From IMG/VR virus record IMGVR_UViG_3300042988_001309, positions 30,094 to 94,093 of that record: a stretch of DNA of 64,000 nt; one strand, given 5' to 3'. Of the stretch, positions 7,314-33,838 are shown piece after piece. How positions within the stretch are numbered: the first letter of the stretch is position 1; every line of letters starts with the position of its first letter. The translations under genes and the position numbers were made by a program. Source of the stretch: a virus. Under the pieces are notes generated by a model. It saw only the letters and a program-made list of their open reading frames with translations, made no database searches and had not been told where the DNA came from.

Positions 7314-8968
7314 TGGGCTTTGGCCAGTCCCGCAAAGCACGTAGCTCGACCGTGCCGACCTCCACCCAACGTCCCAGCCCGTACCCGGTCATGCCCGGCC
7401 GCGCGGGCCAGCCCTACCGCGACTCCTGGGACATGAACCGGGCCGTCGACTACGGCCTCAACAGGTCCATCTGGGTGTACCGGGCCATCAACGCCATCGC
7501 CACCAACCAGGCCCGCCTGCCCATGGTGGCCCGCAAGGGCGACTGGATCGCCGGGCCCGAGCTGCGCGTCGGCGCCACCCGCGACATTCTCAAGCTCCTC
7601 AACTACCAGGCCAACCCCAACGAGCACGCCACGGCGATCTTCCGCAAGCGGCTCACCCAGATCCTGCTGCTCAACCGCCAGGGCGTCATGATCGAGATCA
7701 TCCGCGACCGGGCCGGACGGCCGCTCGCGCTCTACATCCTGCCCCCGGGCTACACCCACCCGATCCCCGACGAGCGCACCTTCGTGTCGGGCTTCCGGGT
7801 CTGGTTCCCCGGCAAGAGCTTCGTGGACCTCCCGCCCGAGAACGTCATCTGGATCAGGGAACCGCACCCCACCGACCCCTACCTGGGCATCACCCCGCTG
7901 GAGGCGGCCGGAATCAACGTCGAGATGGACTACTACAGCCGTCTCTACAACCGGAACTTCCTGGCCAACGACATGCGCCCCGGCGGCATCTTGGTGCTCA
8001 AGGGCCACATGGACGACGCGGATGCCGACGAGCTGCGCCGCCGGTTCTCCGGCTACGGGCCCGGCTACGCCGGTGCTGGGCGCCTCACCGCCATCGAGTC
8101 CGACCAGGGCGCCGACTTCGTCGACACCGGCGCTGCCCCGCGCGACGGCCACTACCTCCAGCTCGACCGGCTCACCCGCGAGTCGATCCTGCTGGCCTTC
8201 GGCGTGCCCGAGTCGATCGCCGGGAACGCCAGCGGCCGCACCTTCGCCAACGCCGATGCCGAGAAGGAAATCTTCTGGCAAGAGACGATGCTCCCGCACC
8301 TCGACATGATCGCCCGAGGCTTCGACCGGCTCATCGACGACGACCCCGAGCACTTCGCCAGCTACGACTTCACCTCGGTGCCGATCCTGGAGCGCTACAA
8401 GCGCGAGGCGGCCGCCGCCCTCAAGGGCGAGCACGATGCCGGGCTCATCAGTGTGGACGAGTACCGGGAAGGCACTGGACGCAAGGCCGTGGGCCACAGC
8501 AAGCTCTACATCGGTCAGGGCCAGACCGCCGTCATCGACGTGGCCAAGCCCTTCCAACCGCTGGAGGACCCCGCCGCTGGCGCCGGTGGCGAGGACCCGA
8601 TGGCGGGCCTGGGCGCCCCCGCTGAACCCTTCGGAGCACCGGACTCCGCTGGTGCCGGGGAACTGCCAGGGTCGCCCTCCGCGTCGTTGCCCGGCGACGG
8701 GGGGGACCCCATGGGCCCCACCCCCCAGCCCGAGCAGGACCCCGCCGGGGCCGATGCGCCGCCGTCATCGCCGGACCCCTACTGGTCCCAGGTGGCGACC
8801 GAGGCCGCCAACCCGGCCCCCGGCACGCCCGAGTGGTGGGCCGCCTACGACTCGATGTTTGAGCGCGACGAGGCCAAGAGCTTGGAGCCCATCCCGGTGC
8901 GCCAGCTCAAGGCCGCGCCCGTGCTCCCCGCCCCGAGGGAGGATCTGTGGACGACGCTGCCTGGGTAG
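7313..8968 (+). CDS. portal protein (HK97 family) with Pro/Asp-rich C-terminal extension
   Basis: WVYRAINAIA, LLNYQANP, YLGITPLEAA, NDMRPGGIL, ILLAFGVPES, TFANA, LISVDEYR motifs. Confidence 0.9.
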   Translation: MGFGQSRKARSSTVPTSTQRPSPYPVMPGRAGQPYRDSWDMNRAVDYGLNRSIWVYRAINAIATNQARLPMVARKGDWIAGPELRVGATRDILKLLNYQANPNEHATAIFRKRLTQILLLNRQGVMIEIIRDRAGRPLALYILPPGYTHPIPDERTFVSGFRVWFPGKSFVDLPPENVIWIREPHPTDPYLGITPLEAAGINVEMDYYSRLYNRNFLANDMRPGGILVLKGHMDDADADELRRRFSGYGPGYAGAGRLTAIESDQGADFVDTGAAPRDGHYLQLDRLTRESILLAFGVPESIAGNASGRTFANADAEKEIFWQETMLPHLDMIARGFDRLIDDDPEHFASYDFTSVPILERYKREAAAALKGEHDAGLISVDEYREGTGRKAVGHSKLYIGQGQTAVIDVAKPFQPLEDPAAGAGGEDPMAGLGAPAEPFGAPDSAGAGELPGSPSASLPGDGGDPMGPTPQPEQDPAGADAPPSSPDPYWSQVATEAANPAPGTPEWWAAYDSMFERDEAKSLEPIPVRQLKAAPVLPAPREDLWTTLPG

Positions 8969-11900
8969 AGGACTGGGAACGGCGAGCCCAGCTCTATGAG
9001 GCGTCGCTCGCCAAGATCATCCGGGCCCATCTGACCCGCCAAGAGCGCGTCGTCATCGAGAAGCTCGGTGGCGCCAAGACCCGCCAGCGCTACGACCGTC
9101 ACCTGGAGGCCAAGGCCCGGTTCGGCAACTCCGGCACGGCTCAGCTCACCCCGGCCCGCCTGGCCAGCTTGATGGCCTCTGCCGCTGTGCCCGGCCGCCC
9201 CGGCGCCGCGGCGCGAGCCACCCTCACCCGGTTTGGCGTGAACTGGCAGACCGGCAAGCCCCTCGCCGGTGGCGCCCCCTCGACGCCCGCCCCGAGCGCC
9301 CCGAGCGCACCGAACACCCCGAGCGTGCCCTCGGCACCGAGCGGCCCGCCGCCATCGCCGCTCAAGATGGTCACCACGCTGATGGGCAACTTCGCGCCCG
9401 GCACGCCGCCCTCCCCGTTGGGGAATGGCGTGATCCCGAACGCCCCCCAGTCGGTCCACAACAACGCCGACATCGCTGCCAAGGCCACCGGCTACGCGCC
9501 CGGCACCAACGGCTACGACCTCGCCTACTACGCCTACCTCGACGCGGCCATGGACCATGCCCGAGGCCTGTTCAAGGTCGACCCCACCACCCATGACTTC
9601 ACCGCCTCCGAACTGGCCGTCCTCGACGCGGTCGCCACCCACGCCGTCCAGAACCGCATCGCCGCCGGTGCACCATCGCTGGCGATGATCTCCCGCAACC
9701 ACTTCCCCCATGCGTTCCCGTTGGCGCCGACGAGCGCCAACCCCAACCCGCCGCTCAATGCCCCCAACACCCCGAGTGCTCCCGCCGCGCCGACGCCGCC
9801 CCCAGTGCCGTCATCGCCCACGCCGCTGGCCAACCCCGGCACGCCGACCATCGTGTTCCAGAACCCGCTGCCCATCGAGCTGCCCGGCGCGATCTATGCC
9901 AACGCCACCAACTACTTCGGGGCCAACCTCATCAACGCCTCGCCGCCCGTGGGTGCCGCGAACCCCTATCGGGCCTTCCCGAGCCAGATGGCCTATGCCA
10001 CCTACGTGGTCGGCGCCATCGAGTCGATCCAGCGCAACGGCTTCCAGGTCGATCCGGCCACCGGCGACTACGACCCGGCCGACTTCGCCAAGTTCGACGC
10101 CGACGGGGCTCACGCCACGTTCACCTACTACAAGTTCGGCACCCCGCCGCCGCTCATGGTGTCGGCCTCGCTGTGGCCGACCGGCGCCCACAGCCCCGGC
10201 GTCTCGATCACCACCACCGGCGTTGCGGTGGGTGCCCCGTCATCGCCCCCGCCACCCCCGCCGGTACTCATGGTCCCCTCGCCGATCGGCATGGTCGCCG
10301 CGGGCTCCCCGGTCTCCCCGCTGCTCGGTGGTGGCCAGCTCCCGGCGATGCCCCAGTCCATCCATGACGCCGCCAACCGTCGAGCGTTGAGCGTCGGTCT
10401 CTCTCCTGGCTTCCAGCCCGGCACCAACGGCTACGACCTCGCCTACTACGCCTACATCGACGCCGTGTACGTCCAGGCGTCCCCGATCATGGGCCAGTCC
10501 CAGGTCCACCTCGACCCCAACACCGGGGACTTCACCCCCGCCGACCTGGTGCTGCTCGACAACGTCGCCTCCAGCGTGGTGGCCAGCACCATGATTGCCG
10601 GAGTCCCCAGCTCCACCATGGTCCAGCGGGGCAACATCCCCGCCAACTTCGCCAACGGTGCCACCCCCTCGCTCAACGCCCCCAACACCCCGAGCCCGTC
10701 ATCGGGCGCCGGTGTACCCCAGGGCCCCTCGATCTCCGCCACGGTCGGCACCCCGACCCCCGCCTTCGGTGGTCCTCCGACCCCTCCGGCCGGGCCGATG
10801 CCGTACCCCGACATCCACGATGTCCCCGACCTCCCCGACCCGCCGGACACCACCCCGGTCCCCGACGACCAGATCGTGCCCACCGTGTCCGGGCTCGACG
10901 AGCTGGTGGCCATGGGCCCGATCCCGCGGGCCAAGTCGCTGGCTGCCACCGTGCAGGCCCACCGGATGCGGATGCGGGCCTGGATCGGTGGCGACCCGAT
11001 GCGCCAGGACCTGGCCGACGCCGCCGCCATGTGGATCGGCGACTACCAGCTCCCCATGCGCGAGTACCAGGAGATCCGCTCGTCGGCCGACTACCTGGCC
11101 AAGAAACCCCGGGGCATGAAGGGCGGCCGCCTGGCCATGCGCCACGCCGCCACGTTGATGGCCGCCGCGGCCACCGGGCCCGTCATCCCCCGCATGTACC
11201 GGGGGATCACCGTGACCTCCAGCGACCTGACCAACATGACCAAGCCGGGCTACCGCTTCACCGGCTCCCTCGACGCCTACTCGCTCAACCGGGACCGGGC
11301 GCTGGCGTTCGGGAACCTGCGCTCCACCAGCGGCTACGGCGGTGGCAACAACCTGGTGATCATCGAGATCGACGGCGGCCACGGCGTGCCGGTCAGCCCC
11401 TTGTCGCACGCCACCGGCGCGGTGAGCTACCTCGACGCCGAGGAGATCCTGTCGTCGGGTGTGTGGGAGACCGTGTCGTCCTCGACCGCGTCCGAGACCC
11501 CGATGACCATGGTGCGCGACGGCATGACCCCCGGATCGAGCCCTCGGACGGTCACCACCATCCGGGTCCGCCAGATCGTGCGCGGCTACGACCCGGTCAC
11601 CGGCGACGAGATCCCCGTCATTGCCCCCGCTGCCGCCACCAAGGCCGCCCGGCGCGACTACCCCGAGATCATTCCGCACGAACCGATGTACCCGAAACCC
11701 AGCGACTTCACCCCCGACCAGGAGGCGATGAACCTGCTGGTGTGGGTGGACGACGGCATCGAGCTGCCCGAGGTCAAGGGCATCCACCTGCCCGGCATCT
11801 TCGACGTGGCTGCGTTCGCCAAGCGACTCATCGACGACGCCCTCGACTGGCTCAAGCTCATGTACGGCGACTGGGGGAGCGCCACGGCCCGTCATCTCGG

Positions 11901-14505
11901 CGCCGCCGACTGGAACCCCCGCGACCCCGCCGTGGTGCAGGCCATCGAGAACCAGGCCGAGCGGATGCGCGGCGTGGCCGAGACCACCTACAAGCTCATC
12001 GAACAGCGCATCGCCGAGGCCGAGGCCGAGGACCTCCCGATGCCCGACATCGTCGACCGGGTCGCCGCCGACTTCGCCCGCCAGCGCGAGACCCGTGCCG
12101 AGACGATCGCGGTGACCGAGGTCTCCGCGGCGGCCAACACCGCCAGCTTCCTGGCCGCCAACCAGATCCCTGGCGCCACGCTCACCAAGACGTGGTGGAC
12201 GATGCAGGACGAGCGGGTCCGCCCCGCCCACCGCCACGCCCATGGCCAGGTGGCCGACGTGATGGAGCCCTTCGTCGTCGGTGGCGTGCCGATGATGTTC
12301 CCCCACGACCCGTCCGCCCCGCTGCACCTGATCATCAACTGCCGGTGCCGGATCATCTGGAAGCCGGTGTACGTGATGACCGGAGCGACCGCTCCCAACC
12401 CGGCGCTGGCCAAGGCGTGGTCCAGCCGTCATGGCCAGTCCAAGGCCCGCTTCGGCAACCGGGGCGGGGCTCAGCTCACCCCGGTGGCCCTTGCCCGGCT
12501 CCTGGCCTCGGCGGCCACCCCCGGCAAGCCCGGCGCCGCCGCCCGCGCCACCCTCACCCGGTTCGGGGCCCGTGTCCCCGCCCCGGCGCCGGTGCCGACC
12601 CCGGGAGGCTCGCTCGACGCCGTCAAGGCCCGCATCGCCGCTCTCCACGCCTCCGGGCCCCAGGCTTCGTGGTTCGGGGCGCAACGGCTGCGCAACCAGA
12701 TCGACCCCAACGACCCGGCCAGCCGGGAACGAGCCGTGCAGGCCACCATCGACGTGATGCTGGGCCGAGGCCAACTCGACTACGACCGGATCATGACCGA
12801 CGACGGCCTCAACGCCATCCGGGACCTCATCGACAAGCGCCTGGCCGGACAACCGCCCAAGGGCCGCATCGGCGCGATCGTCGAGGAGACCTTGAACCGG
12901 CGCATGGGCGCCGCGCTGCGCGACGTGGACCCCGACGAGGTCGCCTCGATGATGGCCAGCCGCTACCTGCCCACCCAGGGCGACTGGGACGACAAGGCCA
13001 TCCGCCAGCGCGACCGTGACTACGCCGCCGCGGCTGCCCGTCATGTCCTGGCCGACTACCTGACCCGCACCACGTCGAACTGGCCGCCCGCTCCGGCCGG
13101 GATGGACGACACCCGCCGGGACCTGATCCGCGACTCGATGACCGCAGGCCTGCGCGGCACCAACGAGCCCGGCATCGCCGCCGTGCTCGCCCAGGCCCCC
13201 AGCCCCCGGGCCATGGCCAACGAGGCCGAGATCAACGCCATCGGCTCCGCCATCATCGACGCCGCCCTGTCCGACAAGGTCACCGACCAGGCCGCCCTCG
13301 ACGCCGCCTACGACGCCGCCTCGACGGCCCACCACGCCTCGATGCGAGCCCTGGCCGTCCACGACGACGCCTACGCCACCTCGGCCGCCGCTGCCGTCAT
13401 CGCCTCGTCCAACTCGATGGGGCTCCCCGACCCGCCGGTGACCGGCTGGGTGGCCATCGACACCAAGGTGGACAAGCGCCGAGGGGCGATCACCCTCATC
13501 TGGGGCAACGGTGGGGACACCTTGTCGATGCGGATCACCGCCCACGGCAACATCCACGCCCGCTACACCTCCGCCGGTGGGGTCGAGCGTGACGCCAGCC
13601 CGGCCATCTCCGACCAGGCCGCCTACGACGCCCTCGCCCAGGCCTCGGCCGACCTCCAGACCATGCGGGCCGCCTACGACGCCAGGGGCATGTACGGCAT
13701 CCGCCGGGTCGAGCGCGACGCCATCTTCGACGCCCTCGGCCAGATCCGCCCGTTCGCCAAGGGCCGCACCCCCCTCGTCGCCACCGACAACACGCCCATC
13801 GCCCACAACTTCGGCAGGGGCCACGGCGCCCCGCCGCCGGACCAGACGGTGATCGACGCCCTCACCTGGGCCACCGACTACTACCCGAGCGACTGGGTCG
13901 ACGCCGGTGACGCCAACGGCCCGGTGTACGGGATGGGCTTCGACCGGCGCGGGTTCTTCACCCAGGTCCCCGACCCGAGCGGCAAGATGGTGCCCGTCAT
14001 CATCGCCAGTCGGTCGGACCCGAGCCCGCTGGTGGAAGGTGGCGGCACCCCCGAGTTCAACGAGACCATGGCCCATGAGTACGGGCACTACATGGAGATG
14101 GTGATCCCCGGCCTGACCGACGCCGAATACGCCCTGTGGTATCGCCGCACCAACGGCGGCGAGGGGGCCATCTCGATGAACGAGGCCGAGGGGGTCCCCG
14201 CTCAACTCCAGGCCATGGGCATGGGCTATGGGCCCGAGGAGATCACCGCCCCCGACGAGTTCCTCTACGCCTACATGGGCAAGATTTACCCTGGCGGCAC
14301 CCAGACGAACCGGGAGATGTTCACCATGGCGATCGAGTCGCTCGTCGGTGGCCGCGGCGGCAAGCTCCCCGACGGCTCCCGGCCCAAGAGCTTCGTCCAG
14401 GGCGACCGGGACATGGCCAACTGGCTCGTCGGCCTGCTGGCCACGCTCAACCTCGGACCGGGCAACACCGCCACCACCTCGACCACTGCCGGAGCGCCGT
14501 CATGA
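8947..14505 (+). CDS. MuF (SPP1 gp7-like) minor head polyvalent protein: motif, Pro-rich repeats, ART-like, MuF, motif, zincin HExxH
   Basis: MuF: RAETIAVTEV...KTWWTMQDERVRPAH...INCRC (~12090-12350); ART: MYRG (11197)...AYS...AEEIL; MAHEYGHYME (14074). Confidence 0.85.
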   Translation: MDDAAWVEDWERRAQLYEASLAKIIRAHLTRQERVVIEKLGGAKTRQRYDRHLEAKARFGNSGTAQLTPARLASLMASAAVPGRPGAAARATLTRFGVNWQTGKPLAGGAPSTPAPSAPSAPNTPSVPSAPSGPPPSPLKMVTTLMGNFAPGTPPSPLGNGVIPNAPQSVHNNADIAAKATGYAPGTNGYDLAYYAYLDAAMDHARGLFKVDPTTHDFTASELAVLDAVATHAVQNRIAAGAPSLAMISRNHFPHAFPLAPTSANPNPPLNAPNTPSAPAAPTPPPVPSSPTPLANPGTPTIVFQNPLPIELPGAIYANATNYFGANLINASPPVGAANPYRAFPSQMAYATYVVGAIESIQRNGFQVDPATGDYDPADFAKFDADGAHATFTYYKFGTPPPLMVSASLWPTGAHSPGVSITTTGVAVGAPSSPPPPPPVLMVPSPIGMVAAGSPVSPLLGGGQLPAMPQSIHDAANRRALSVGLSPGFQPGTNGYDLAYYAYIDAVYVQASPIMGQSQVHLDPNTGDFTPADLVLLDNVASSVVASTMIAGVPSSTMVQRGNIPANFANGATPSLNAPNTPSPSSGAGVPQGPSISATVGTPTPAFGGPPTPPAGPMPYPDIHDVPDLPDPPDTTPVPDDQIVPTVSGLDELVAMGPIPRAKSLAATVQAHRMRMRAWIGGDPMRQDLADAAAMWIGDYQLPMREYQEIRSSADYLAKKPRGMKGGRLAMRHAATLMAAAATGPVIPRMYRGITVTSSDLTNMTKPGYRFTGSLDAYSLNRDRALAFGNLRSTSGYGGGNNLVIIEIDGGHGVPVSPLSHATGAVSYLDAEEILSSGVWETVSSSTASETPMTMVRDGMTPGSSPRTVTTIRVRQIVRGYDPVTGDEIPVIAPAAATKAARRDYPEIIPHEPMYPKPSDFTPDQEAMNLLVWVDDGIELPEVKGIHLPGIFDVAAFAKRLIDDALDWLKLMYGDWGSATARHLGAADWNPRDPAVVQAIENQAERMRGVAETTYKLIEQRIAEAEAEDLPMPDIVDRVAADFARQRETRAETIAVTEVSAAANTASFLAANQIPGATLTKTWWTMQDERVRPAHRHAHGQVADVMEPFVVGGVPMMFPHDPSAPLHLIINCRCRIIWKPVYVMTGATAPNPALAKAWSSRHGQSKARFGNRGGAQLTPVALARLLASAATPGKPGAAARATLTRFGARVPAPAPVPTPGGSLDAVKARIAALHASGPQASWFGAQRLRNQIDPNDPASRERAVQATIDVMLGRGQLDYDRIMTDDGLNAIRDLIDKRLAGQPPKGRIGAIVEETLNRRMGAALRDVDPDEVASMMASRYLPTQGDWDDKAIRQRDRDYAAAAARHVLADYLTRTTSNWPPAPAGMDDTRRDLIRDSMTAGLRGTNEPGIAAVLAQAPSPRAMANEAEINAIGSAIIDAALSDKVTDQAALDAAYDAASTAHHASMRALAVHDDAYATSAAAAVIASSNSMGLPDPPVTGWVAIDTKVDKRRGAITLIWGNGGDTLSMRITAHGNIHARYTSAGGVERDASPAISDQAAYDALAQASADLQTMRAAYDARGMYGIRRVERDAIFDALGQIRPFAKGRTPLVATDNTPIAHNFGRGHGAPPPDQTVIDALTWATDYYPSDWVDAGDANGPVYGMGFDRRGFFTQVPDPSGKMVPVIIASRSDPSPLVEGGGTPEFNETMAHEYGHYMEMVIPGLTDAEYALWYRRTNGGEGAISMNEAEGVPAQLQAMGMGYGPEEITAPDEFLYAYMGKIYPGGTQTNREMFTMAIESLVGGRGGKLPDGSRPKSFVQGDRDMANWLVGLLATLNLGPGNTATTSTTAGAPS
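9112..9237 (+). repeat. RATLTRF protein motif copy 1 of 8
   Basis: EAK|ARFGNSGTAQLTPARLASLMASAAVPGRPGAAARATLTRFG. Confidence 0.95.
12442..12567 (+). repeat. RATLTRF motif copy 2
   Basis: QSK|ARFGNRGGAQLTPVALARLLASAATPGKPGAAARATLTRFG. Confidence 0.95.
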
Positions 14506-14849: not shown

Positions 14850-17800
14850 ATGGCGTTCGTGTGGAGATGGGCCCCCGGTGAAGTGAAGGCCACGGTGGCA
14901 GGGACGGCCAACCGTTTCGGCAACCTCGGTGGCTCCCAGATCAACGCCGCCAAACTCGTCTCGCTGGTGACCCGAGCCGCTGTGCCCGGCCGCCCCGGCG
15001 CCGCGGCGCGAGCCACCCTCACCCGGTTCGGCTACGACGCCGCTGGCAACCCACTGTCGGGGCAAGGGCCCACGGTCGCCCAGATGGCCGCGGCGGCCAA
15101 CGTCCCCGGCCCCAACGTCCCCAACGCCCCGAGCCCGTCATCGCCCAACGCCCCTGGTGCGCCCTCGACCCCGAACGCACCCAGCGCCCCCTCTGCGCCG
15201 TTGCCGCCCCCCCAGCCGACGGCGCCGAACGCCCCCGGCCCGGTGTCGTCCTCCACGCCTGGGCCGGGGGCACCTTCCGCCGCTGCGCTGCCAGCGATGC
15301 CCTCGGTGCCCGGCTCGGTGGCCGGTGCGAACACGGTGCCCGTGCTCGACGCCAACGGCTCACCCCGCCCCGTCATGACGGTCGACAAGGTCGACGACTT
15401 CCCGACCTCCAACGCCATCGTCGACTCCTCGATCATCCTGTCCGACGCCCTCACCGAGGTGGTGACCACCATGGGTGGCACCTACGGCGACGACACCCCC
15501 GAGAACTACACGGCGGTCAACGCCTTCGTGACCGAGGCCGCCCAGACCCTGGTGGACCTCGACCTGGCCGCCAACTTCGACGCCGGGCTCGGCGCCAACC
15601 ACCGCCCCTGGCCCACGGCCGACCAGCTCTACACCGCCGTCACCCGTGGCTACCAGGCGGCCTGGCAGTCGGTGGCCAAGCTCCACGGCGACACCCCGAG
15701 CGACCAGAGCACGACCGACGAGGTGCTCACCCCCGGGCCGGGATGGCACTCGCCGATGACCGGCCGGGACTACCCCGGGATGCCCGCCGACGTGCCCCTG
15801 CCCGACTACTTCGACAACGTCACCATGGGGCCCGAGCCCACCTTGCCGAGCGGCTCCCCGCGGCCCCCGCTGCGCCTCCCCGATCCCAATCTGCCCCAAC
15901 GGCCGACCGTCATCGTCAACCAGGACGGCCGCCTGTTCAGCCTCATGGCCTCGATCTCCTCGGCGTTCCGCACCACCTACGGCAAGGACTCCCCGGAGCG
16001 CCGCATCGCCATCGGCGCGTTCCTGGCCGAGACCTCCCAGAGCGCCACCGACTTCGGCTTCAAGCCCACGGGCTGGGGCTCGTTCGCCAACGGCAAGAGC
16101 CCGACCGACGAACAGCTCATGGTCATCGCCGACCGGGGCCGCCGCTCGGCGTTCCAGTCGGTCGCCGACTTCCACGACGCCCAGCTCGCCCCCGCGGCCG
16201 TCACCGAGCGCGACGACATCTATCTGCCCGACCGGGGCGAGCAGACGATCAAGGTCAACTCGCTCACCGACGTGGTCGACGACGCCACGCTGCCCTACGT
16301 TGAGATCCCGCCGAGCTGGGGCAACGGCGGCCCGGGAGCCGCCAAGAGGCCCTCCGACGCCGAGCTGGCGTGGAAGTTCTCCCTCGACTACGGCGCCCCC
16401 GGAACGGTCGCTCAGCGCCTCGCCTACAACACCTGGGCCGTGTGGGCCTCCAAGTGGCGACGCAACGACCCCGCCAAGTACCGGGTCCTGGCGATGTCGA
16501 CGGCCGAGGCCCAAGGCATCGAGGAGAACGCCCGGTTCGACATGGTGACCAGGGTCCTGGCCCACCCCTCGACCGAGGCCATCGCCGTGCCCGGCTCGCG
16601 TTCGGTGCAAGACACCGAGCACCGCGAGTGGGTCGAGCTGCCCGCTGGCGCCGGAGCCCCCGACCCCAGGGCCAACCCGGGCAAGACCTACACCGCCGCC
16701 GGACTGCGCGATGGGTCGGACCCCTACGTCCCCCGCCCGGTCGGGCTGGCCCGCTCGGGGAGCGCGTTCGACAAGCTCATCGACAACCCCATCGACGCCG
16801 AGTGGATGACCAGCCACGGCTATCCACCCGACCCGGTGCTCCTCGCCGTGGCCCAGTCGGCGTGGGCCGATGCGGTGAACGAGCGGACCTTCTACGCCGA
16901 GCGCAGGGGCTACTCCGTCATCCCCTCGATCAACACCATCGTCCTCGACGCCGAGACCGACATCGCTCGACGCCTGGCCGACGCCCAGTGGTCGCGCACC
17001 CAGGACCCGCCGGTGCCGATCAACCTCGGCTGGGGAGACGGTGTCAAGGACGACGACTACTCGGTGCTCACCGACCCGTACCTGTTCGGGCCCAACGGCC
17101 GCACCGGCGCCAAGAACCTGTGGGACCTCAACTTCGACGCCTGGGAGAAGATGGGCGGGGACCGTAGCTCCGTCATCGCCCGGAGCACCCAGCTCATCGC
17201 CGACCACAAGTACGCGCCCGACGACGTGACCCCGCTGCTGCGCACCGACTTCCGGCGCGGCTCACCGGCGATCGACATCCCCCACGACTACCTCGACGCC
17301 TACCTCAAGACCGGCGGCATGGACGTGGCCCGCCGGGACCGCTCGGTGCTCGCCCAGAACGACCAGTTCGCCATGCTCTCGTTCACCCCCGACTCGGCCT
17401 ATGCCCAGTGGATTGCCGTGGACATCGCCAAGCGCCGCGTCGACGGCGAGGCGACCCGTCATGACGACATGATCCAGGCCCGCATCGACGACGCCACGGC
17501 CCAGGACCTGATCGCCTTCGCCCAGGGGCTCGCCGGTGTCGATGTCAGCGACCCGACCGCCCCCCAGTACCCGGCCGGGCGCGACACCTACATCGTGGCC
17601 CTGGCCGCCATGGGCAACCAGTTCGACCAGCTCCCCAAGATCATCTCCGGCAACGACATCGACGCCGCCAAGGCCGCCGCCGTGACCGCCGTCAAGGCCG
17701 CCTCGATGGCGCAGTTGCCTGGCCTGGAAGCCGCCCTCGCCTTCGCCAAGTCCGGCGACCCCAACGACGACTACGGCTGGGCCGACCTCGACGCCGAGTA

Positions 17801-21953: not shown

Positions 21954-21975
21954 GGGTGCATCATGCCACAGAGGT

Positions 21976-22020: not shown

Positions 22021-22026
22021 GACCTC

Positions 22027-24754: not shown

Positions 24755-24810
24755 ACCTCTGCCCGTCATGGGTCGGCCCCTACATCACCCCGAGCGAAAG
24801 GAAAGTTGAC

Positions 24811-25233: not shown

Positions 25234-25281
25234 GCCCGCCCATCAGAGTCATCGAGGTTGACCTGGTGCGATGATGGCGTC

Positions 25282-25572: not shown

Positions 25573-25573
25573 C

Positions 25574-28500
25574 ATGACCGCCGACCAGGGCCGCATCTTG
25601 GCCATGGCGATCCTGCTGGAGGGCGCGATCCGAGACGCTCCTGCCCTCCCCGGCAAGGGTCCGCTCGCCTCGATCGCCGAGGTCTACAACCGCCTGCTCG
25701 CCGACCCCTCCGATCGCTACGGCGGCCCGGCGTTGATCGAGTTCGTGCTCGACGCCGCCCGCCGTCATGGCGCTGCGGTGCCCGGCGGTGAGGGCAAGTC
25801 GATCGAGCAGAGGTTCGGCAACCGGGGCGGCAAGCTCACCCCCGACGGCCTGCTGCGCCTCACCTCCACCGCCCTGCTCCCCAACGACCGAGGCCGAGCG
25901 GCACGGGCCACCCTCACCCGCTTCACCGGCCGGGGCAAGCTCGACCTCCCCGACGGTGATCGCCGCCAGGTCGACCACGCCCAAGCCTCGACGCTGTTCA
26001 ACCGTGAGCGCCAGCGCAACCTGTTCGGCGCCCAGGCGGGCCATCTGTCGGCCGTGGAGATCGGCAAGCGGTTCACCCTGCCCGAGTCGTTCAAGGCCCG
26101 CGCCATCGGGGACCTGATCGCCCAGGACCCCTCCCGCGGCACCGAGTACGGCGGGACCGGCCGGTATCAAGACGGCTTCTACAGCGGCAACTGGAGCGTC
26201 GTGCTCGCCAACGCCCAGCGGCTCGACCCGAGCCTGGACGAGCGCTCCCCGGTCGGTGACGTGCTCGCCGCCTCCCAGCCGCCCGCCATCGGCTTCAACA
26301 ACCCCGAACAGGACCCCGCCTCGATCGCGCTGGCCGCCCGCCTCGCTGCCTCCGCCGACCCCGACGCCGAGCGCCGGGCATGGGCCACCGAGCAGGGCTG
26401 GACCGCCGAGGCCGGATACGTCGCCGCCCTCCAGGGCTGGTGGATCAACGACAGTTCCTCCCCGTGGGCCCAAGCGATGACGCTGGCCGCCGCTCAACGT
26501 CTCGGCGACCCGAGCGACATGGCCCGCTCGCTCAGTCACCTCCAGGCCAAGGCCGCCGAGTGGGAGCCCGGCACGCTGGTCGGCCAGGACATCCTCGACT
26601 CCGCCGAGGGCCCGGCGCTGCGCCAGGCCGTCATGGCCATCTATGACCACACCCAGGCCCGCCTCGCCGACTACGGGCTCCGGCCCGACGACCTGATCGA
26701 GCTGTACCGAGGGATCGGCCCCGACAACGAGATCCGCACCGGCGACACCGCCATCGCCGACCCGCTCACGTCGTGGTCGTCGAACCCCGCCGTGGCGTTG
26801 TCGTTCACCAAGGTCCGCCGCGGCGGATCGGTGCTCAGCGGCTCGGTGCCCGCCCGCTCGATCCTCATGCTCATCACCGACGCCACCGGCTACGGCGGGC
26901 TCCACTACGCGAAGTGGGAATGGCACCTCGACTCCCAAGAGGAGTTCGTGACCCTCGGTGGCCCGGTGAACGTGACGGTGACCAGGACCCAGGACCCGGT
27001 CGGGCTCCTGCACGGGTCGACCCCGGTCGAGTCGGTGATCGCCCGAGGTCCCGGCTTCAAGTCGGCCCGGCGCGAGGTGTACGTGGACGGCGACAACTGG
27101 ATGCACGTCGTGCGCTCCGCCATGCCGTCATCGGGCATGAAGGCCCGGTTCGGCAACGCCGGGACGGCCAAGCTGTCCGCCGCTCGCCTCGCCAGCTTGA
27201 TGGAGCGAGCCCCGACGAGCCCCCAGGCGCGAGCCACGCTCACCCGGTTCGGGATCGACTGGCATCGCCCGGCCGCTCCGGCCGCTCCGGCCAAGAACCC
27301 CGCCGTGCCGGAGCGCCTTGTCCTCGGCGTGCCCGGCTGGGACCAACAGTTCACCGCCCACCCCGAGGCGATCGAGCCGGTAATGCTGGCGCTGGAGGCC
27401 GAGGACCGCCTGCGCGCCTACGCCGCCAACGTCGGCACGGTCACCGACCGCTGGTCGGGCCGCTCCGAGGACTATCGGACCACCATCTTCAACAACGCCC
27501 AGTCGTTGCAGGCCGTCATGAAAGCGACGGTCAACGACCCGGACAACATGCCGGTCGATGTGGATTGGACCTCCGAGACCGTCGACATCGCCCACCAGAC
27601 ATGGGTCGACGCTCGCCCGTTCACCGACTGGTCCGTTCATGGCCCCGAGGACCGTTCGGCGTGGCTGCTCGCCGCGGCCAAGCGCCGGGTCTCGGGCGAG
27701 GACTGGGGCGTGGCGGTGACCAACGTGGCCCGCCGCCTGGCCGACGGCACGGCCCCCGAGGACACCTACGACCCCAACGACCAAGACGCCAACCAGCGGG
27801 CCGGGGTGACGAGGTACGACCCGTTCCTCGATCTCCAGCACGGCTGGGCGCTCTACAACGGTCTGCGCGACCCGGCGGTGACGACCCCCTCGCCCACCCC
27901 GCTGTATCGGGGCATGTCGTTCACCCCTGACGGCAAGGCCATCGCCGTCGGGGACCGGATCGACATCGCCGCCGCCTCGTTCTCCCTGTCGAGCGACGTG
28001 GCCGACTCGTTCGCCCTCGACCGCAACTTCGACGAGGAATCTCAGGTCGCCACCGATGACGAATCCCTCGCCGCCACCGATCGGATGCGAGCCGAGCACT
28101 ACCCCAACGCGTCGCGCGTCGTGTACGTCGCCGCCCCCGGCACCCCGGGCTTCGATGCCACCAGCTTCTCGGTGCGCGGCGAGCAGGAGTGGCTCGTTGG
28201 CGGCACGTTCACCGTGACCGCCATCGACGAGGGCGACCGCGTCCGCTACATCCACATCGCCCCCGCTGCCACCAAGGCCGCACGCCGGTGGCGGATGGAC
28301 CCCACCGACTTGCCCGCCGATCTGGACTGGCCGGTGCGGCCGTCATCGGGGATGAAGGCCCGTTTCGGCAACGCCCACTCCGCCAAGCTCACCCCGGCCC
28401 GCCTGGCCAGCCTGCTGTCGCGTGCGGCCACCAGCCCCCAGGCGCGAGCCACGCTCACCCGGTTCGGCGTGGATTGGCGCACCGGCGCCATCGCCAACCC

Positions 28501-30451
28501 ACCGGCCCCCCGGGTGCCTCGCCGCACGCTTCCCCGTCCGGCCCGTGACGGCAAGTGGCACCTCGTCGGCAACGTCGATGTCCGGGCCCTGCCCACCGAC
28601 CCGGCCGACACCTGGCGGGTGTCGTGTGAGCGTTGTGGCGGCACCGGCTACGTCACCAGCGGCAACGCCGCCCACGGCACGATCTGCTACCGCTGTGGCA
28701 GTGGGGGGGACGAGCCCGCCGTGCCCGTCAACACCGCCACCTCGCCGCTGCCCCCCAAGCTGCTCACCTGGGACGGGGTCGAGCTGCTCGACCAGCACCG
28801 CGCCCAAGTCGCCGCCGACGAGCAGGCCCGCAACGAGGCCCGCAAGGCCGAGTTCGTCCGCAAGCTCACCGTGTTCGACAACGCCGTCATGGCCGACCCC
28901 GAGTTCGGGTCTCGCATGGCCCGCCTGCGCTACCTCGACGACATGGCCCAAGGGGCAACGACCGAGCCCCCATCGGCATCACTGGCCATCGTGCGCCACG
29001 ACGCCGTGGCCGACGCCGACGTGGGCAACACGTTCGACCTGACCCCGCACCGCGCCGAGCTGGCCCGAGCGTTCGACGCCGCCGAGGCCTACACCGCCCG
29101 GGTCTACCCCGAGCTGGCCGCCGAGGTCGGCATCGGGCCGGAACGCTCCGGCCGAGCCCCGAGCCCCAAACAGGTGTCGTACCTGCGCAACCTGCTGCGC
29201 CGCTCGGGCATCAACCCCGCCGAGGCCGACACGGTCGACGACTCGACCATCGCATCGGCGCTCATCGACGCGCTCAACGAGGGCGACACCCGCCGGGCCC
29301 GCTACCTCCTCGACGCCTCAGCCCCGCCGTCATCGGAGCTGGGTCCAGTGCTCGACGCCCTGCTCGCCCGCCACCAGTTCGACCCCGACGCCGAGGAGGC
29401 TCCGCTCCCGGGGCTCAACCCTGACCGCGTGGTCGGCGACATCGGCCGCTCGCTTCTCGACCAGGGCTTCGCGCTACCCGACCAGCTCGCCGCCCGGCCA
29501 GCGAACGATCCGGTGACCTCGATCGGGCTCGACGGCGCACTGTTCTCCGGCATCCGCGACGAGGGCGAGGCGTCCACGTTCGGGGAACTGCTCACCGCCT
29601 GGGCGCGCTTGCGCGAGCAACGAGCCGCCGACGAGGTCTGGCAGGGCACGCGGGACATCCTCGACGAGCAGGACGCCCTGGCCGACGCGGCCCGGCGCAC
29701 CGGGGCGCCTTACCCCGAGGCCGAGATCGCCCGCCTCGGGGATCGACTGCGCGCTCGGGAGGCCGAGCTGACTGCCCAGGCCGAGGCCAAGTACCGCATC
29801 GGGCCCAGCCTGGGTTACGCCGTCATGATGCAAGACGCCTGGAGCGAGACCACCGCCGGTGACCGTTCGGCGGCCATGATCACCGCCGCCGCCAACCAGT
29901 TCCCGAACCCGACGATGACCGAGGGGCTTCAAGCGTTCCGGCAGTTCCAACCCGGCTTGGCCGCATCTGCCGAGACGATCGTCAACGGCCCAGAGGCCCC
30001 GGCGATCGGCGCGTTCATGGCGACCACCTACGCCGCCACCCAACGGTTCCTCGCCGACAACGGCTTCCCCCCGGGCTCGACGGTGACGCTGTATCGAGGG
30101 GTCTCGACCGGCGCCGACCAGGTGGGTGGGGAGGTGTTGGTCAACCCGCTCTCATCGTTCACCACCGACCGCTCCATCGCCGAACGGTTCTCGCGTGTCG
30201 ACTGGGGCCTGGAGGGCCAAGGCGGGGTGATCACCGCCCAGGTGCCGGTCGAGCGGATCTTCTCGATCGCCGGGATCGGCCCCGGCCACCTCGCCAGCCG
30301 GGAAGTGGTGGTGCTCGGGGGACGGCTCCCGGCATCGGCCGATCTGACCTTCCGGCCGACCTACAAGGGCCTGGGCGGGCCGTCATACATCGACGCCGAC
30401 AGCGACTGGCTGCGCGTGGCGGCCCGGTTGATCGCCTCCGCCAGCGCCTGA
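25574..30451 (+). CDS. 1625-aa polyprotein with three motif+ADP-ribosyltransferase modules and a DnaJ-type Zn finger
   Basis: LYRG...SWS...QEE (26705-26943); LYRG...SFS...EQE (27905-28189); LYRG...SFT...SRE (30092-30304); CERCGGTG/CYRCGSGG (~28625-28705). Confidence 0.8.
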   Translation: MTADQGRILAMAILLEGAIRDAPALPGKGPLASIAEVYNRLLADPSDRYGGPALIEFVLDAARRHGAAVPGGEGKSIEQRFGNRGGKLTPDGLLRLTSTALLPNDRGRAARATLTRFTGRGKLDLPDGDRRQVDHAQASTLFNRERQRNLFGAQAGHLSAVEIGKRFTLPESFKARAIGDLIAQDPSRGTEYGGTGRYQDGFYSGNWSVVLANAQRLDPSLDERSPVGDVLAASQPPAIGFNNPEQDPASIALAARLAASADPDAERRAWATEQGWTAEAGYVAALQGWWINDSSSPWAQAMTLAAAQRLGDPSDMARSLSHLQAKAAEWEPGTLVGQDILDSAEGPALRQAVMAIYDHTQARLADYGLRPDDLIELYRGIGPDNEIRTGDTAIADPLTSWSSNPAVALSFTKVRRGGSVLSGSVPARSILMLITDATGYGGLHYAKWEWHLDSQEEFVTLGGPVNVTVTRTQDPVGLLHGSTPVESVIARGPGFKSARREVYVDGDNWMHVVRSAMPSSGMKARFGNAGTAKLSAARLASLMERAPTSPQARATLTRFGIDWHRPAAPAAPAKNPAVPERLVLGVPGWDQQFTAHPEAIEPVMLALEAEDRLRAYAANVGTVTDRWSGRSEDYRTTIFNNAQSLQAVMKATVNDPDNMPVDVDWTSETVDIAHQTWVDARPFTDWSVHGPEDRSAWLLAAAKRRVSGEDWGVAVTNVARRLADGTAPEDTYDPNDQDANQRAGVTRYDPFLDLQHGWALYNGLRDPAVTTPSPTPLYRGMSFTPDGKAIAVGDRIDIAAASFSLSSDVADSFALDRNFDEESQVATDDESLAATDRMRAEHYPNASRVVYVAAPGTPGFDATSFSVRGEQEWLVGGTFTVTAIDEGDRVRYIHIAPAATKAARRWRMDPTDLPADLDWPVRPSSGMKARFGNAHSAKLTPARLASLLSRAATSPQARATLTRFGVDWRTGAIANPPAPRVPRRTLPRPARDGKWHLVGNVDVRALPTDPADTWRVSCERCGGTGYVTSGNAAHGTICYRCGSGGDEPAVPVNTATSPLPPKLLTWDGVELLDQHRAQVAADEQARNEARKAEFVRKLTVFDNAVMADPEFGSRMARLRYLDDMAQGATTEPPSASLAIVRHDAVADADVGNTFDLTPHRAELARAFDAAEAYTARVYPELAAEVGIGPERSGRAPSPKQVSYLRNLLRRSGINPAEADTVDDSTIASALIDALNEGDTRRARYLLDASAPPSSELGPVLDALLARHQFDPDAEEAPLPGLNPDRVVGDIGRSLLDQGFALPDQLAARPANDPVTSIGLDGALFSGIRDEGEASTFGELLTAWARLREQRAADEVWQGTRDILDEQDALADAARRTGAPYPEAEIARLGDRLRAREAELTAQAEAKYRIGPSLGYAVMMQDAWSETTAGDRSAAMITAAANQFPNPTMTEGLQAFRQFQPGLAASAETIVNGPEAPAIGAFMATTYAATQRFLADNGFPPGSTVTLYRGVSTGADQVGGEVLVNPLSSFTTDRSIAERFSRVDWGLEGQGGVITAQVPVERIFSIAGIGPGHLASREVVVLGGRLPASADLTFRPTYKGLGGPSYIDADSDWLRVAARLIASASA
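25796..25930 (+). repeat. RATLTRF motif copy 4
   Basis: EGK|SIEQRFGNRGGKLTPDGLLRLTSTALLPNDRGRAARATLTRFTG. Confidence 0.9.
27140..27253 (+). repeat. RATLTRF motif copy 5
   Basis: GMK|ARFGNAGTAKLSAARLASLMERAPTSPQARATLTRFG. Confidence 0.95.
28355..28468 (+). repeat. RATLTRF motif copy 6
   Basis: GMK|ARFGNAHSAKLTPARLASLLSRAATSPQARATLTRFG. Confidence 0.95.
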
Positions 30452-30679: not shown

Positions 30680-33600
30680 ATGACCCTGGAGTTCAAGAGC
30701 GCCCAGAGCCTGACCGCCGTAGACGCAAACCAGGGGATCGCTGAGGCGATCGTCTCGGTCACCAACATCGTCGACCACGTCGGCGACAAGATCATCCCCG
30801 GCGCCTACGCCGAGACCCTCAAGACCCGTCGCCCCAAGGTCTGCTGGAACCACAAGTGGGACAACACCGTGGGCAAGGTGCTGGAGATCGTCGAGTTGAT
30901 GCCCGGCGATCCACGCCTGCCCGACAAGCTCAAGACGATCGGGGCCGGGGCGCTCAAGGTCAAGGTGCAGTTCAACCTCAACTCCACCCGAGGCCGCGAT
31001 GCCTGGGAGGACGTGAAGTTCTACGGCGAGGAGGGCGAGTGGTCGATCGGCTACGACGTGAACGGCCCGACGGGCAAGAGCCGCAACGTCGGGGGAGTGC
31101 GGGAACTGCACCAGATCAACCTGTTCGAAGTCAGCCCCGTACCGTTCGGCGCCGCCCCGCTCACCGGAACCCTCGCCCTCAAGAGCCTCGGCGCACCGAG
31201 CGCACCTGAGGCCGTCATGGGCCGGGTCCCGTTCGACAACGCCGTGAAGGCCTACGGCGCCGGTGCCCAGCTCTCCGCCGGTGGACGAGCCCGCCTCACC
31301 GCACGGGCCGCCCTGCCCGGTCGCGAGGGGGCCGCGGCGCGAGCGACGCTCACCCGGTTCCTCGGCGGCGGCAAGCCCGAGGCGCCACGCCCGGCGGCTC
31401 AGCCGACCCATTTCATGCCCCCGGACGCCCCGACGTTTCGCTTCCCCGAGAGCATCGACAACCTGCTCGCCGCCGGACCAGACGCCCTGTCGAGGGCCGC
31501 GTGGGCGCCCGTGGAATGGGACGAGACCGAGGACCCCTACTCCTACGAGAGCCGGTACATCATCGGCGGGCCCGACTCCGTCGTGACGCTCACCCCGGAC
31601 CCCGGTCAGGGGCGGGCCTTCCTGTCAATCCCCGGCAACGACAGCCTGGAGATCAGGACCGTCGGCGATTTCGAGAAGGCCTACACGGCCATCGACCGCG
31701 GCTTCGTCGGCAAGCTGGAACTGCGGGATCTCTCGGCTCGCAACATCGCCGTCCTCATCGAGGACAACATCCGCGAGTCCGTCAATGCCGATGGGCGCCG
31801 GTCCGCCACGGTCGACGGCGCCCCGGGGTTCGGCCTGGTGTTCACCCCCGACGGCCTGAACGTGGTCACTCCTGACGGGGCCGTGAAGCGGGTCAATGAG
31901 GTCGACGACCTGCGCTTCGTCCTCGGCAAGCCCCCCTATCCGCACACCAGCCTCACCGGCTCCACCCCCAAGCCGAGGGGGACGACCTACGTGGTCCCGG
32001 CGGGGCGCATCCCCCGGAACCTGGGGGCGATGACGACCTCCGAACAGTACGAGGACATGGATCGCTACAACGCCTTCGTGGCGGCCGGTGGCGAGGGGCG
32101 CACCTGGATTCCCACCGTCCGCGACTACCCCGACCCTGGAGGTCACGTCATGAACTGGCCGAAATCCGCCGAGCCCGTCATGGACCCGCTCGTCGCCGAC
32201 TACCTCGATCTGACCGGCAAGGCGTGGACCCGGGGCGGGAAGCTGTCCGACGCGGGTCGAGCCAAGCTGGTGGCACGCGCCGCTGTCCCCGGCAAGGAAG
32301 GCGCCGCCGCCCGCGCGACGTTGACCCGCTACCTCGGCGGCGACAAAGAGGCGGCCGGACGGATGATCCAAGCGCACCGTTCCGGCGACAAGCTGCCCGA
32401 CGCCGCGGCGACGGCCAAGATGCCGTCGCGTCGCGAACGGCGCCTCATCGAGGCCGCCACCAACGGTGACAAGGAAGCGGTAGCCGCGTTGCGCGACATG
32501 GGTCTCGAAACCGACGGCCTGCCCGGCTACGGCTTCCAGCGCCCCGAGATCGCCGAAGGACTCGCCAGCGTGGAGCGCGCCGGGTTCGCCCCGTTCGTCC
32601 GTCAATGGAGTCGGGCGACCGGCAAACCGCAAACGGCCAGCGAGATTTACGGCATCCCCCGAGAGTTTCGCGACCCGCCCCCTGGCTATTCGACGAGGCA
32701 GGAATGGACCGATGCTGTCGGCAGGGGTGTCCGCGGCGGCGACGGCACGGCGGCCAAGCCGTTCCTGGTGAGCGGTGATCTCCCCCCGGAAGAACGGCAA
32801 CGACTGTTCAACGCCCTCGCCGACTCGTCCGCGGACGGGGTGCGTGGCGTCGCGATCGGGGACCCCGAACTTGGTGTCTCCGACCCGAAACTCACCGAAC
32901 GTGCCCGCGCTCGGGCGGGGAATGACCTGCTGTCGTCGGCGTTCACCACCGCGAAACTCGACGAGTTCCACGCCGACTTCGACGGACGCAAAGACCTGTC
33001 CGACGCGATTCAATCCGGCACCGGCAGTCAACGCGACCCGTACATCACCGACAACCCCGAAGCGGCCGCCATGGCGATCGGCAAAGGCAGGTTCGTCGAG
33101 CTGCAACAGCCCGACGAACTGGCGACCATGATCGACGTGATCGCCGACTGGGTGAACGAGGCCAAGGCCAAGGGTGAGAAGGCCCCGACCTACGACCTGT
33201 GCCGGGCCATGGTCAAGGGCACCAACCTGTTCTGCATCGAGTCCAAGGGCATCCCCCGCATCAAGATGCCCCAGCTCTCTGGCATCCCGACGCCGGGCTC
33301 TCCGGCCGACTCGTTGCCCAAGCGGCCCAACGGCGAGGTCGACCTCGTCCCGTTGTTCCTCCAGCACCTGGCGTCCAAGGGCATCCGCTCCCAGCGCACC
33401 TCGGTGAAGGCCAGCCACCTGCGCGCCAGCCAGAACGAGCTGAACGGCGGCAAGGTGTCCGGCATGGTCCAGTCCATGGCCGCGGGCAAGCTCCCGCCGG
33501 GCTCGATCATCTCGACGACCGACAACTACGTGGTCGACGGGCATCACCGCTGGGCGGCCACCATCGGCACCTCGATCAAACAGGGCGACGATCTCATGGT

Positions 33601-33838
33601 CGACACCGACCAGATCGACGCCCCGATCCTCCAGGTGCTCGCCCTGGCCAACCTCTACGCCGTGGAGATGGGCATCCCGCCCGCCGGGGCCGATGCCCCC
33701 GTGCCCCAGGCCAAGCGCTTCCGCCGTCATGGGTCGCTGCGCAAGAGCCGCGACTCCGCTCCGCCGTGCATCGGATGCGGGGACGAGCCCGACCCGATCG
33801 CCCAGTACGTGGCCCTCAAGGCCAACCGCCCCCACTGA
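30680..33838 (+). CDS. HK97-family prohead protease fused to two motif-tagged cargo regions, the last ending in a ParB/Srx-like domain
   Basis: N-term DHVGDKIIPGAY, WNH, WSIGY, LFEVSPVPFGA; C-term LRASQNEL...YVVDGHHRWAA. Confidence 0.88.
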   Translation: MTLEFKSAQSLTAVDANQGIAEAIVSVTNIVDHVGDKIIPGAYAETLKTRRPKVCWNHKWDNTVGKVLEIVELMPGDPRLPDKLKTIGAGALKVKVQFNLNSTRGRDAWEDVKFYGEEGEWSIGYDVNGPTGKSRNVGGVRELHQINLFEVSPVPFGAAPLTGTLALKSLGAPSAPEAVMGRVPFDNAVKAYGAGAQLSAGGRARLTARAALPGREGAAARATLTRFLGGGKPEAPRPAAQPTHFMPPDAPTFRFPESIDNLLAAGPDALSRAAWAPVEWDETEDPYSYESRYIIGGPDSVVTLTPDPGQGRAFLSIPGNDSLEIRTVGDFEKAYTAIDRGFVGKLELRDLSARNIAVLIEDNIRESVNADGRRSATVDGAPGFGLVFTPDGLNVVTPDGAVKRVNEVDDLRFVLGKPPYPHTSLTGSTPKPRGTTYVVPAGRIPRNLGAMTTSEQYEDMDRYNAFVAAGGEGRTWIPTVRDYPDPGGHVMNWPKSAEPVMDPLVADYLDLTGKAWTRGGKLSDAGRAKLVARAAVPGKEGAAARATLTRYLGGDKEAAGRMIQAHRSGDKLPDAAATAKMPSRRERRLIEAATNGDKEAVAALRDMGLETDGLPGYGFQRPEIAEGLASVERAGFAPFVRQWSRATGKPQTASEIYGIPREFRDPPPGYSTRQEWTDAVGRGVRGGDGTAAKPFLVSGDLPPEERQRLFNALADSSADGVRGVAIGDPELGVSDPKLTERARARAGNDLLSSAFTTAKLDEFHADFDGRKDLSDAIQSGTGSQRDPYITDNPEAAAMAIGKGRFVELQQPDELATMIDVIADWVNEAKAKGEKAPTYDLCRAMVKGTNLFCIESKGIPRIKMPQLSGIPTPGSPADSLPKRPNGEVDLVPLFLQHLASKGIRSQRTSVKASHLRASQNELNGGKVSGMVQSMAAGKLPPGSIISTTDNYVVDGHHRWAATIGTSIKQGDDLMVDTDQIDAPILQVLALANLYAVEMGIPPAGADAPVPQAKRFRRHGSLRKSRDSAPPCIGCGDEPDPIAQYVALKANRPH
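31247..31366 (+). repeat. RATLTRF motif copy 7
   Basis: AVK|AYGAGAQLSAGGRARLTARAALPGREGAAARATLTRFLG. Confidence 0.9.
32219..32338 (+). repeat. RATLTRF motif copy 8
   Basis: TGK|AWTRGGKLSDAGRAKLVARAAVPGKEGAAARATLTRYLG. Confidence 0.9.

Follow-up and report, generated by a model that had tools for sequence, protein, structure and literature searches.

A basic hairpin tag repeated in the prohead protease and giant head proteins of an uncultured phage: a candidate procapsid address

The window analysed in the current study is a stretch of 64,000 nucleotides (nt), bases 30094–94093 of the 94,093-bp IMG/VR virus record IMGVR_UViG_3300042988_001309 (completeness rating, 94%). The phage is uncultured, has a G+C content of about 69%, and carries nearly every gene on the plus strand. 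Four large open reading frames (ORFs) of its head module share a previously undescribed basic peptide of 45 residues, here called the tag, which is present in eight copies. An earlier note, made from the sequence alone, had described these copies and had interpreted the four products as polyproteins, loaded into the capsid and cut by the prohead protease into effectors that each begin with the tag. It put the part of the head module devoted to this at about 20 kb, and the four ORFs do come to 20,139 nt together. The tagged genes and the tag copies are listed below.

8947–14505, + strand: MuF polyvalent protein, 1852 amino acids (aa); PF04233, E 7e-12; phrog_2468
14850–21392, + strand: 2180-aa protein; no match in Pfam or PHROG
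25574–30451, + strand: 1625-aa protein of three tag-plus-module units; PF07357 (DRAT), E 9.5e-6
30680–33838, + strand: prohead protease fusion, 1052 aa; PF04586, E 1.8e-12
9112–9234, + strand: tag copy 1, K56 to F96 of the MuF protein; found by regular expression, tblastn and hidden Markov model (HMM)
12442–12564, + strand: tag copy 2, at K1166 of the MuF protein, directly after the MuF domain; regular expression, tblastn and HMM
14886–15029, + strand: tag copy 3, at K13 of the 2180-aa protein (residues 13–60); regular expression, tblastn and HMM
25796–25924, + strand: tag copy 4, at K75 of the 1625-aa protein; regular expression, tblastn and HMM
27140–27250, + strand: tag copy 5, at K523 of the 1625-aa protein; short-loop form
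28355–28465, + strand: tag copy 6, at K928 of the 1625-aa protein; short-loop form
31247–31360, + strand: tag copy 7, at K190 of the protease fusion, in the place of the C-terminal tail of HK97 gp4
32219–32332, + strand: tag copy 8, at K514 of the protease fusion; regular expression, tblastn and HMM

The eight start coordinates given in the earlier note each fall on the Lys codon listed here, and three independent scans agree that there are eight copies only, all in the four head ORFs, so that the claim of no copy outside the head module stands. The regular expression A[RK]ATLT[RK][FYW], applied to all six frames, matches at the same eight places and nowhere else. A tblastn search of the whole 94,093-bp record recovered the eight tags at E 1e-7 to 1e-25 and, besides these, only their antisense shadows. 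With the HMM, run on all ORFs of the window, eight domains scored 61–78 bits, and the next match (12.8 bits) was the antisense of a tag. The Lys-Ala/Ser that had been said to precede every copy lies directly before RFGN in four of them and at the equivalent place in copies 7 and 8, but is found four residues further upstream in copy 4 and eight further upstream in copy 3. When the four tagged proteins are compared with each other by BLAST, the tags are the sole detectable similarity. Synonymous difference between the copies averages 0.47, and the codons of the core ARATLTR vary (CGA/CGC/CGG, GCC/GCG, ACC/ACG, CTC/TTG) while its residues are invariant. Together these features indicate selection on the peptide, and copies that are old rather than recently duplicated.

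As judged from structure prediction, the tag is a self-contained unit of about 45 residues, made up of a flexible leader that holds the Lys-Ala/Ser and a basic two-helix hairpin that ends in ARATLTR(F/Y). An AlphaFold2 model built from the alignment of the eight copies has helices at 19–29 and 34–45, joined by a four-residue turn, with a predicted local distance difference test (pLDDT) score of about 90; the N-terminal leader, which includes K↓ARFGN (the arrow marks a candidate cleavage position), scores below 70. The hairpin proper is thus a strongly basic segment of 27 residues that is predicted to be folded. In a model of the first 260 residues of the protease fusion, the S78 domain is folded at 11–158 and the hairpin at 200–227, with disorder at 159–196, a segment containing both K168↓S and K190↓A, and again at 229–260. 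Linkers rich in Pro and Ala follow six of the eight tags. Each tag has a net charge of +5 to +8 and four to six Arg, as against a net charge of −4 to −67 for the host proteins. The disordered flanks, the folded hairpin and the opposite charge suggest a free-standing element on a string, separate from the neighbouring folds. A Foldseek search of the tag model against PDB gave nothing below E 6, the model being too small for a firm negative. Identity with the helix-hairpin-helix motif was considered and rejected, as Pfam HhH families gave no match at E up to 10 and copies 4–6 lack the loop glycines.

Such a charged hairpin could instead bind the packaged genome, in which case the released modules would be held on the DNA and carried with it into the host, as has been proposed for the basic internal proteins of T4. 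The Arg-rich, positively charged tags within otherwise acidic proteins, and the predicted two-helix hairpin, are what such a role would call for, and one tag per module would suit a function exerted after cleavage. No DNA-binding family matches the tag at E up to 10, however, three copies lack the loop glycines of a helix-hairpin-helix, and DNA binding would leave unexplained the acidic peptide that occupies the same positions in related proviruses (described below). A DNA handle is regarded as quite unlikely.

The tag is exceedingly rare. Neither Pfam nor PHROG has a family that matches it, even at E 10. Among 1.84 billion cluster representatives, a profile search recovered the proteins of this phage, two true relatives (P0009 and P0010) and two unrelated repeat proteins (P0008 and P0011) that were rejected as false positives, and a word-indexed search of 5.8 billion clusters gave an identical set. 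No further copies were found in INPHARED (by tblastn), IMG/VR, JGI metagenome contigs or GTDB genomes. About 15 billion proteins include only two other carriers, both of them singletons on short Logan contigs, which makes three lineages in all. In P0009 (4.9-kb contig), an S78 protease, 48% identical to that of this phage, is followed by two tandem tags and then by a piece that in this phage is found deep within the 1625-aa protein. P0010 (3.0-kb contig) consists of a ParB-like domain, one tag, and a zeta-toxin/AAA_33 kinase; its residues 35–179 are 32% identical (E 4e-17) to the ParB-like part of the protease fusion. Both relatives join the tag to different cargo. Their architectures indicate that the tag is portable, and that a module can precede its only tag.

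Portability alone might be explained if the tag were a recombination boundary for the swapping of cargo, comparable to the VENN or pre-toxin motifs of polymorphic toxins, and had no binding role. The cargo beside the tag does differ among this phage, P0009 and P0010, and the restriction of BLAST similarity between the four proteins to the tags would also fit. On the other side, a 47% synonymous difference around an invariant core implies selection on the peptide, the DNA identity (mean 77% over 33 nt) is low for recombination by homology to work well, and a confident fold is predicted. A simple cassette joint is considered very unlikely.

The surroundings of the four genes are those of a head module, with a large terminase, portal, MuF protein, S78 protease and HK97-type capsid protein, in agreement with the earlier description. 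The flanking genes are as follows.

1162–2919, + strand: large terminase
7313–8968, + strand: portal protein, 551 aa; phrog_2662 and phrog_12 (portal), E 5e-53
33852–34904, + strand: acidic 350-aa ORF between the protease and capsid genes; no family
35093–36415, + strand: HK97-type major capsid protein with an N-terminal delta domain; PDB 1OHG and 3QPR, E 1e-49 to 1e-50

The nearest cultured relatives are phages of Gordonia, Brevibacterium and Streptomyces, with 45% identity in the protease domain only.

The cargo of MuF, ART, zincin and ParB type that had been described was also recovered. The MuF protein consists, in order, of tag 1, Pro-rich repeats, an ADP-ribosyltransferase (ART)-like unit of the R-S-E type (YRG at 11197), the MuF domain (12082–12357; residues 1046–1137 of 1852), tag 2, and a zincin-like domain with the motif HEYGH (14074–14088) at the C-terminus. 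For this last domain the nearest Atlas clusters are zincin-like metallopeptidases (0.92–0.94), which is taken as a lead only. A near-identical JGI contig (P0007) differs at one residue in 1,235 of the MuF protein, an Ala-to-Thr change located two positions ahead of the K663↓SLAA site (window 10933–10935). Apart from the N-terminal tag 3, the 2180-aa protein is without family, and its last 300 aa have a weak lead, no stronger than Atlas 0.88–0.89, to clusters of PF18760 (ART-PolyVal). In the 1625-aa protein, units 1 and 3 are paralogous DRAT-like ARTs (E 2e-14; LYRG at 26702 and 30089), the DRAT match reaching 25.4 bits with a cut-off of 25. Unit 2 shows an R-S-E-like pattern only (LYRG at 27902), and unit 3 opens with a CxxC...CxxC finger (28625–28696). 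The protease fusion runs from the S78 domain (1–168) and K168↓SLGA through tag 7, an unknown domain, tag 8 and a ParB-like domain to the C-terminal YVALKANRPH. Its ParB-like assignment is based on a DGHHR motif at 33536 and on the homology to P0010. Four regions matched nothing in Pfam, searched at E up to 1, and their annotation stays at the level of motifs or leads: the zincin and ParB-like domains, the ART-like unit of the MuF protein, and unit 2 of the 1625-aa protein.

That the tag starts each cargo module, as had been proposed, is only partly borne out, as the ParB-like domain of P0010 precedes the sole tag, and the N-terminal pieces of the MuF and 1625-aa proteins are untagged. A further common Lys-Ala context at module ends, (I)APA(A)ATK↓AARR, follows ART-like units of the MuF and 1625-aa proteins (window 11641–11667 and 28274–28300).

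Evidence on the specificity of the prohead protease comes from comparison with HK97. The S78 domain of the fusion has H58 and S122, which are invariant with HK97 gp4 in an alignment that includes relatives, and the capsid protein matches HK97 gp5 at E 1e-50. The mature HK97 chain begins at Ser104, after ...FNK↓SLGS, and the 282 residues of the PDB chain equal 385 minus 103. In the capsid protein of this phage, QFK↓SLGA at K97 (35381–35392) corresponds to HK97 K103↓S104, and K97↓S98 is the predicted maturation site; K97, L99 and G100 show no variation among seven related capsid proteins. A further K↓SLG (K139; 35507–35518) lies in an insertion that the relatives lack, giving two HK97-like sites 42 residues apart. 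The catalytic domain of the protease likewise closes with a Lys that does not vary and that precedes Ser or Ala: LALK↓SLGA here, the same arrangement in four aligned relatives, and AAMK↓SVDG (K159) in HK97 gp4. Across ten proteases, K168 is conserved at a level of at least 90%. Lys contexts of the types K↓AW, K↓SL and K↓AR are met repeatedly, namely within the delta domain of the capsid protein, within the 350-aa ORF and ahead of the tags. Taken together, the capsid K↓SLG, the invariant Lys-Ser/Ala at the end of the protease domain and the recurring contexts make it likely, as far as sequence can tell, that the S78 protease is Lys-specific.

The acidic 350-aa ORF (pI 4.3) has K↓SL sites as well as a C-terminal peptide shared with the protease fusion, and is a candidate for a scaffold-like partner. 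The two proteins end almost identically, in Y(V/S)ALKA(N/S)(R/S)PH followed by the stop codon (window 33794–33835 and 34860–34901), and in each a CxxC precedes this end (CIGCG and CGTCE, respectively). By phmmer alone the similarity is not significant (independent E 0.2). The shared end could be a second common head-targeting or cut signal.

Copy 7 is of particular interest because of its position. With its leader it makes up 61 residues after K168, and HK97 gp4 has at the same position a C-terminal tail of 66 residues. Duda, Oh and Hendrix reportedly mapped, in 2013, the encapsidation signal of gp4 to its C-terminal part. The protease of phage SPN3US, gp245, removes its own C-terminal propeptide of 64 residues (PMC10052503). 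Against HK97 gp4, the tag HMM gave only a chance match (−0.4 bits) inside the catalytic domain, with no similarity to the tail. A 'QINA' shared by the tag and the gp4 tail was dismissed as chance.

Related phages have a different peptide in a comparable arrangement. The tag is absent from nine related head loci, among them eight IMG/VR records whose protease is 45–49% identical to that of P0009; compared with the N-terminus of the protease of this phage, seven of the eight show 36–41% identity and L017 shows 25%. In seven of these eight records the protease is fused to 2H-phosphoesterase or Nudix cargo and finishes in a conserved end, TV(R/H/T)L..DEVKA.LA.L, while in L017 this peptide instead ends a 486-aa ORF just upstream of the protease. 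The same peptide recurs within giant head ORFs of these records (E 1e-13 to 1e-10; the model included the internal copies from the first record but not those from the others), with three copies in a 5,722-aa ORF, three in a 5,838-aa ORF, two in a 5,854-aa ORF and one weak copy in a 7,058-aa ORF. The internal copies follow an acidic low-complexity linker and have Arg, Ser or Ala in place of the Lys of the protease copy, so that the shared peptide is more suggestive of a binding label than of a cut site. The records with giant ORFs are L014, L015, L016 and L010 (IMG/VR proviruses G001–G004), and the 2H-phosphoesterase motif reads HITLAYLG.

A third, unrelated peptide, K.VR.V..(Y/F)WG.PYGTPITPG, stands at the head of a VIP2-like ART and of the gene that follows it in 13 Gordonia phage records (11 phages). 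It is found at two places per genome, e.g. in gp22 and gp23 of ChisanaKitsune (L009, 5259–6460), and a weak match lies inside protease-MuF fusions of mycobacteriophages, e.g. Argie gp8 (L019, about 3500). Considering only the tag and the TV(R/H/T)L peptide of the proviruses, two lineages have two unrelated peptides, each of which is common to the protease fusion and to giant cargo. Entry into the prohead is the one requirement shared by protease and cargo.

An alternative is that the tag is chiefly an element that docks the preceding Lys-Ala/Ser, or presents it, to the S78 protease or to the zincin of the MuF protein, loading being achieved by other means, such as MuF-portal binding or fusion to the protease. 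The Lys-Ala/Ser lies in a predicted disordered leader ahead of every hairpin, and K↓S-L-G and K↓A-W contexts likewise occur within the capsid delta domain and where the protease domain ends. Zincin-like peptidases have been proposed as the processing enzymes of polyvalent proteins (PMC5512222), and the HEYGH motif and the Atlas lead would place such an enzyme at the end of the MuF protein, where it would compete with the prohead protease for the role of processor. A folded basic hairpin of 27 residues, however, far exceeds the needs of a cut site, and no such hairpin accompanies the sites in the capsid protein. In the relatives, the analogous peptide is without Lys in its internal copies, and K[AS] dipeptides show no overall enrichment in three of the four tagged proteins. 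A role confined to cleavage is considered unlikely.

The interpretation preferred here, with moderate confidence, is that the tag serves as a portable procapsid address common to the protease and to the polyvalent-protein cargo, with the protease cutting in the linkers. We infer binding through the tag, as well as cleavage, packaging and ejection. As the head assembles, the hairpins would attach to an interior feature of the growing HK97-type shell, for which the capsid delta domain and the neighbouring acidic 350-aa ORF are candidates. Protease and cargo would in this way be built into the prohead together, the cargo comprising several ADP-ribosyltransferases, a zincin, a ParB-like domain and unknown domains. 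The S78 protease would then cut exposed Lys↓Ser/Ala positions in the capsid delta domain, at the end of its own catalytic domain and in the linkers before the hairpins, and the modules would stay in the head and presumably exit with the DNA. The loading and cutting scheme of the earlier note is thus retained in part: the motif, its setting, the cargo and the autonomy of the tag all hold, and Lys↓Ser/Ala specificity of the prohead protease is plausible. Its cutting of the polyproteins is weakened by the competing zincin and by the relatives' Lys-less internal copies; the rule that a tag starts each module is weakened by P0010 and by the untagged N-terminal pieces of the MuF and 1625-aa proteins.

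Several observations weigh against a procapsid address. A single address per polyprotein would suffice, so that targeting does not by itself account for two or three in one protein; such multiple tags may stem from formerly separate gene cassettes, from avidity, or from a function after cleavage. A cut at K168 or K190 would leave the hairpin on the downstream module and not on the protease. As there is no sequence similarity to the gp4 tail, the link between tag and tail is positional only. Finally, in two of the three tags of P0009 and P0010 the residue after Lys is Pro or Asn, which weakens a strict K↓A/S rule.

A broader and more tentative proposal is that HK97-type phages use a general but lineage-specific code of address labels, in which the peptide that brings the protease into the prohead is portable and has been copied onto giant effectors. 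The labels may be, by clade, the ARATLTRF hairpin of this phage, TVRL..DEVKA.LA.L in the related proviruses, and K.VR.V..YWG.PYGTPITPG in the Gordonia and Mycobacterium phages. If so, sequence could reveal what a capsid carries, and attachment of the local tag could serve to load any protein. To our knowledge, the choice of head proteins by tailed phages is known in detail only for T4, in part for P1, and for the HK97 protease itself, and the literature on polyvalent proteins leaves their loading signal open. A tag shared by protease and cargo would make the sets of injected effectors predictable in uncultured phages and would provide a means of packaging foreign proteins in actinobacterial phages. 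With three lineages among about 15 billion proteins, the tag is of value for its design and for the parallel that the relatives offer, and not for the spread of the sequence.

The tagged proteins closely resemble polyvalent proteins, for which Iyer et al. (2017; PMC5512222) predict packaging in the head, delivery, and processing by the proteins' own zincin peptidases. In that work, polyvalent proteins are giant multi-enzyme proteins encoded among the late genes for portal and terminase, with MuF, ART, zincin and ParB-like hub domains, as here; the zeta-toxin kinase of P0010 and the 2H and Nudix domains of the related proviruses are further hub domains. The class is marked by at least two unrelated effector or enzymatic domains per polypeptide; the MuF protein combines MuF and zincin, the protease fusion combines S78 and a ParB-like domain, and the 1625-aa protein has two paralogous DRAT-like units. 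The four ORFs have the late-gene position, flanked as they are by terminase, portal, protease and capsid genes. In the passages searched (PMC5512222), no repeated short tag, no role for a prohead protease and no capsid-address peptide was found, and nothing of this tag design was found in the literature searched.

That cargo proteins can share a capsid-targeting peptide is an established principle in T4 and P1 (PMC9024508). The T4 targeting sequence (IPI-III and Alt; Mullaney and Black 1996) and the signal of P1 DarB comprise about 10–30 residues at the extreme N-terminus; the T4 signal is cut off at its C-terminal edge, and the P1 Dar proteins have no common consensus (PMC9024508). As in T4, one short peptide is borne by several head proteins, which in T4 include an ADP-ribosyltransferase, and is coupled there to cutting by the prohead protease (PMC9024508). 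Unlike the T4 and P1 signals, the tag has about 45 residues with a folded hairpin, is mostly internal, and is present up to three times per protein. Only copy 3 is N-terminal, the others starting at residues 56 to 1166. It differs from T4, too, in that the candidate cut is on the N-terminal side of the tag and that the protease fusion is itself tagged; the conserved Lys-Ala/Ser precedes the hairpin, and no conserved candidate site follows TLTRF. Among protease tails, with the gp245 propeptide of SPN3US as another example, the gp4 tail of HK97 resembles copy 7 in following the conserved Lys-Ser of the S78 domain at similar length (61 residues for copy 7 versus 66 for gp4). Unlike gp4, with which it has no sequence similarity, the fusion continues for 800 further residues of cargo, and the tag is also carried by proteins without a protease domain.

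The C-terminal helix-turn-helix of the P22 scaffolding protein and the cargo-loading peptides of encapsulins, which are short and partly basic, dock scaffold or cargo inside an HK97-fold shell. With the former the tag has in common a predicted basic two-helix hairpin; it differs from both in position and multiplicity, and no sequence or Foldseek match to them was found, with a tag model too small for a firm negative. In the MuF polymorphic toxins of temperate phages (Jamet et al. 2017, PMC5576092), toxin-like domains are likewise fused to a MuF head domain, but the MuF domain is N-terminal with one C-terminal toxin, whereas here it is in mid-protein with tagged modules on both sides.

Two features of the gene layout remain to be described. 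Between the 2180-aa and 1625-aa genes (window 21389–25573) lie several small ORFs of 120–180 aa, with no family and no tag; tagging is thus not universal among the genes of the head module. These ORFs could be immunity or chaperone genes. At window 8863–8968 the portal protein stops at 551 aa, while the portal ORFs of relatives are 812–895 aa long, and the 895-aa portal of ChisanaKitsune has the MuF part fused to it. In this phage the MuF domain is found about 1,045 residues into the following ORF, whose frame differs from that of the portal gene and which shares 22 nt with the portal end, and about 940 residues, comprising a tag, the Pro-rich repeats and the ART-like unit, intervene between portal and MuF domain.

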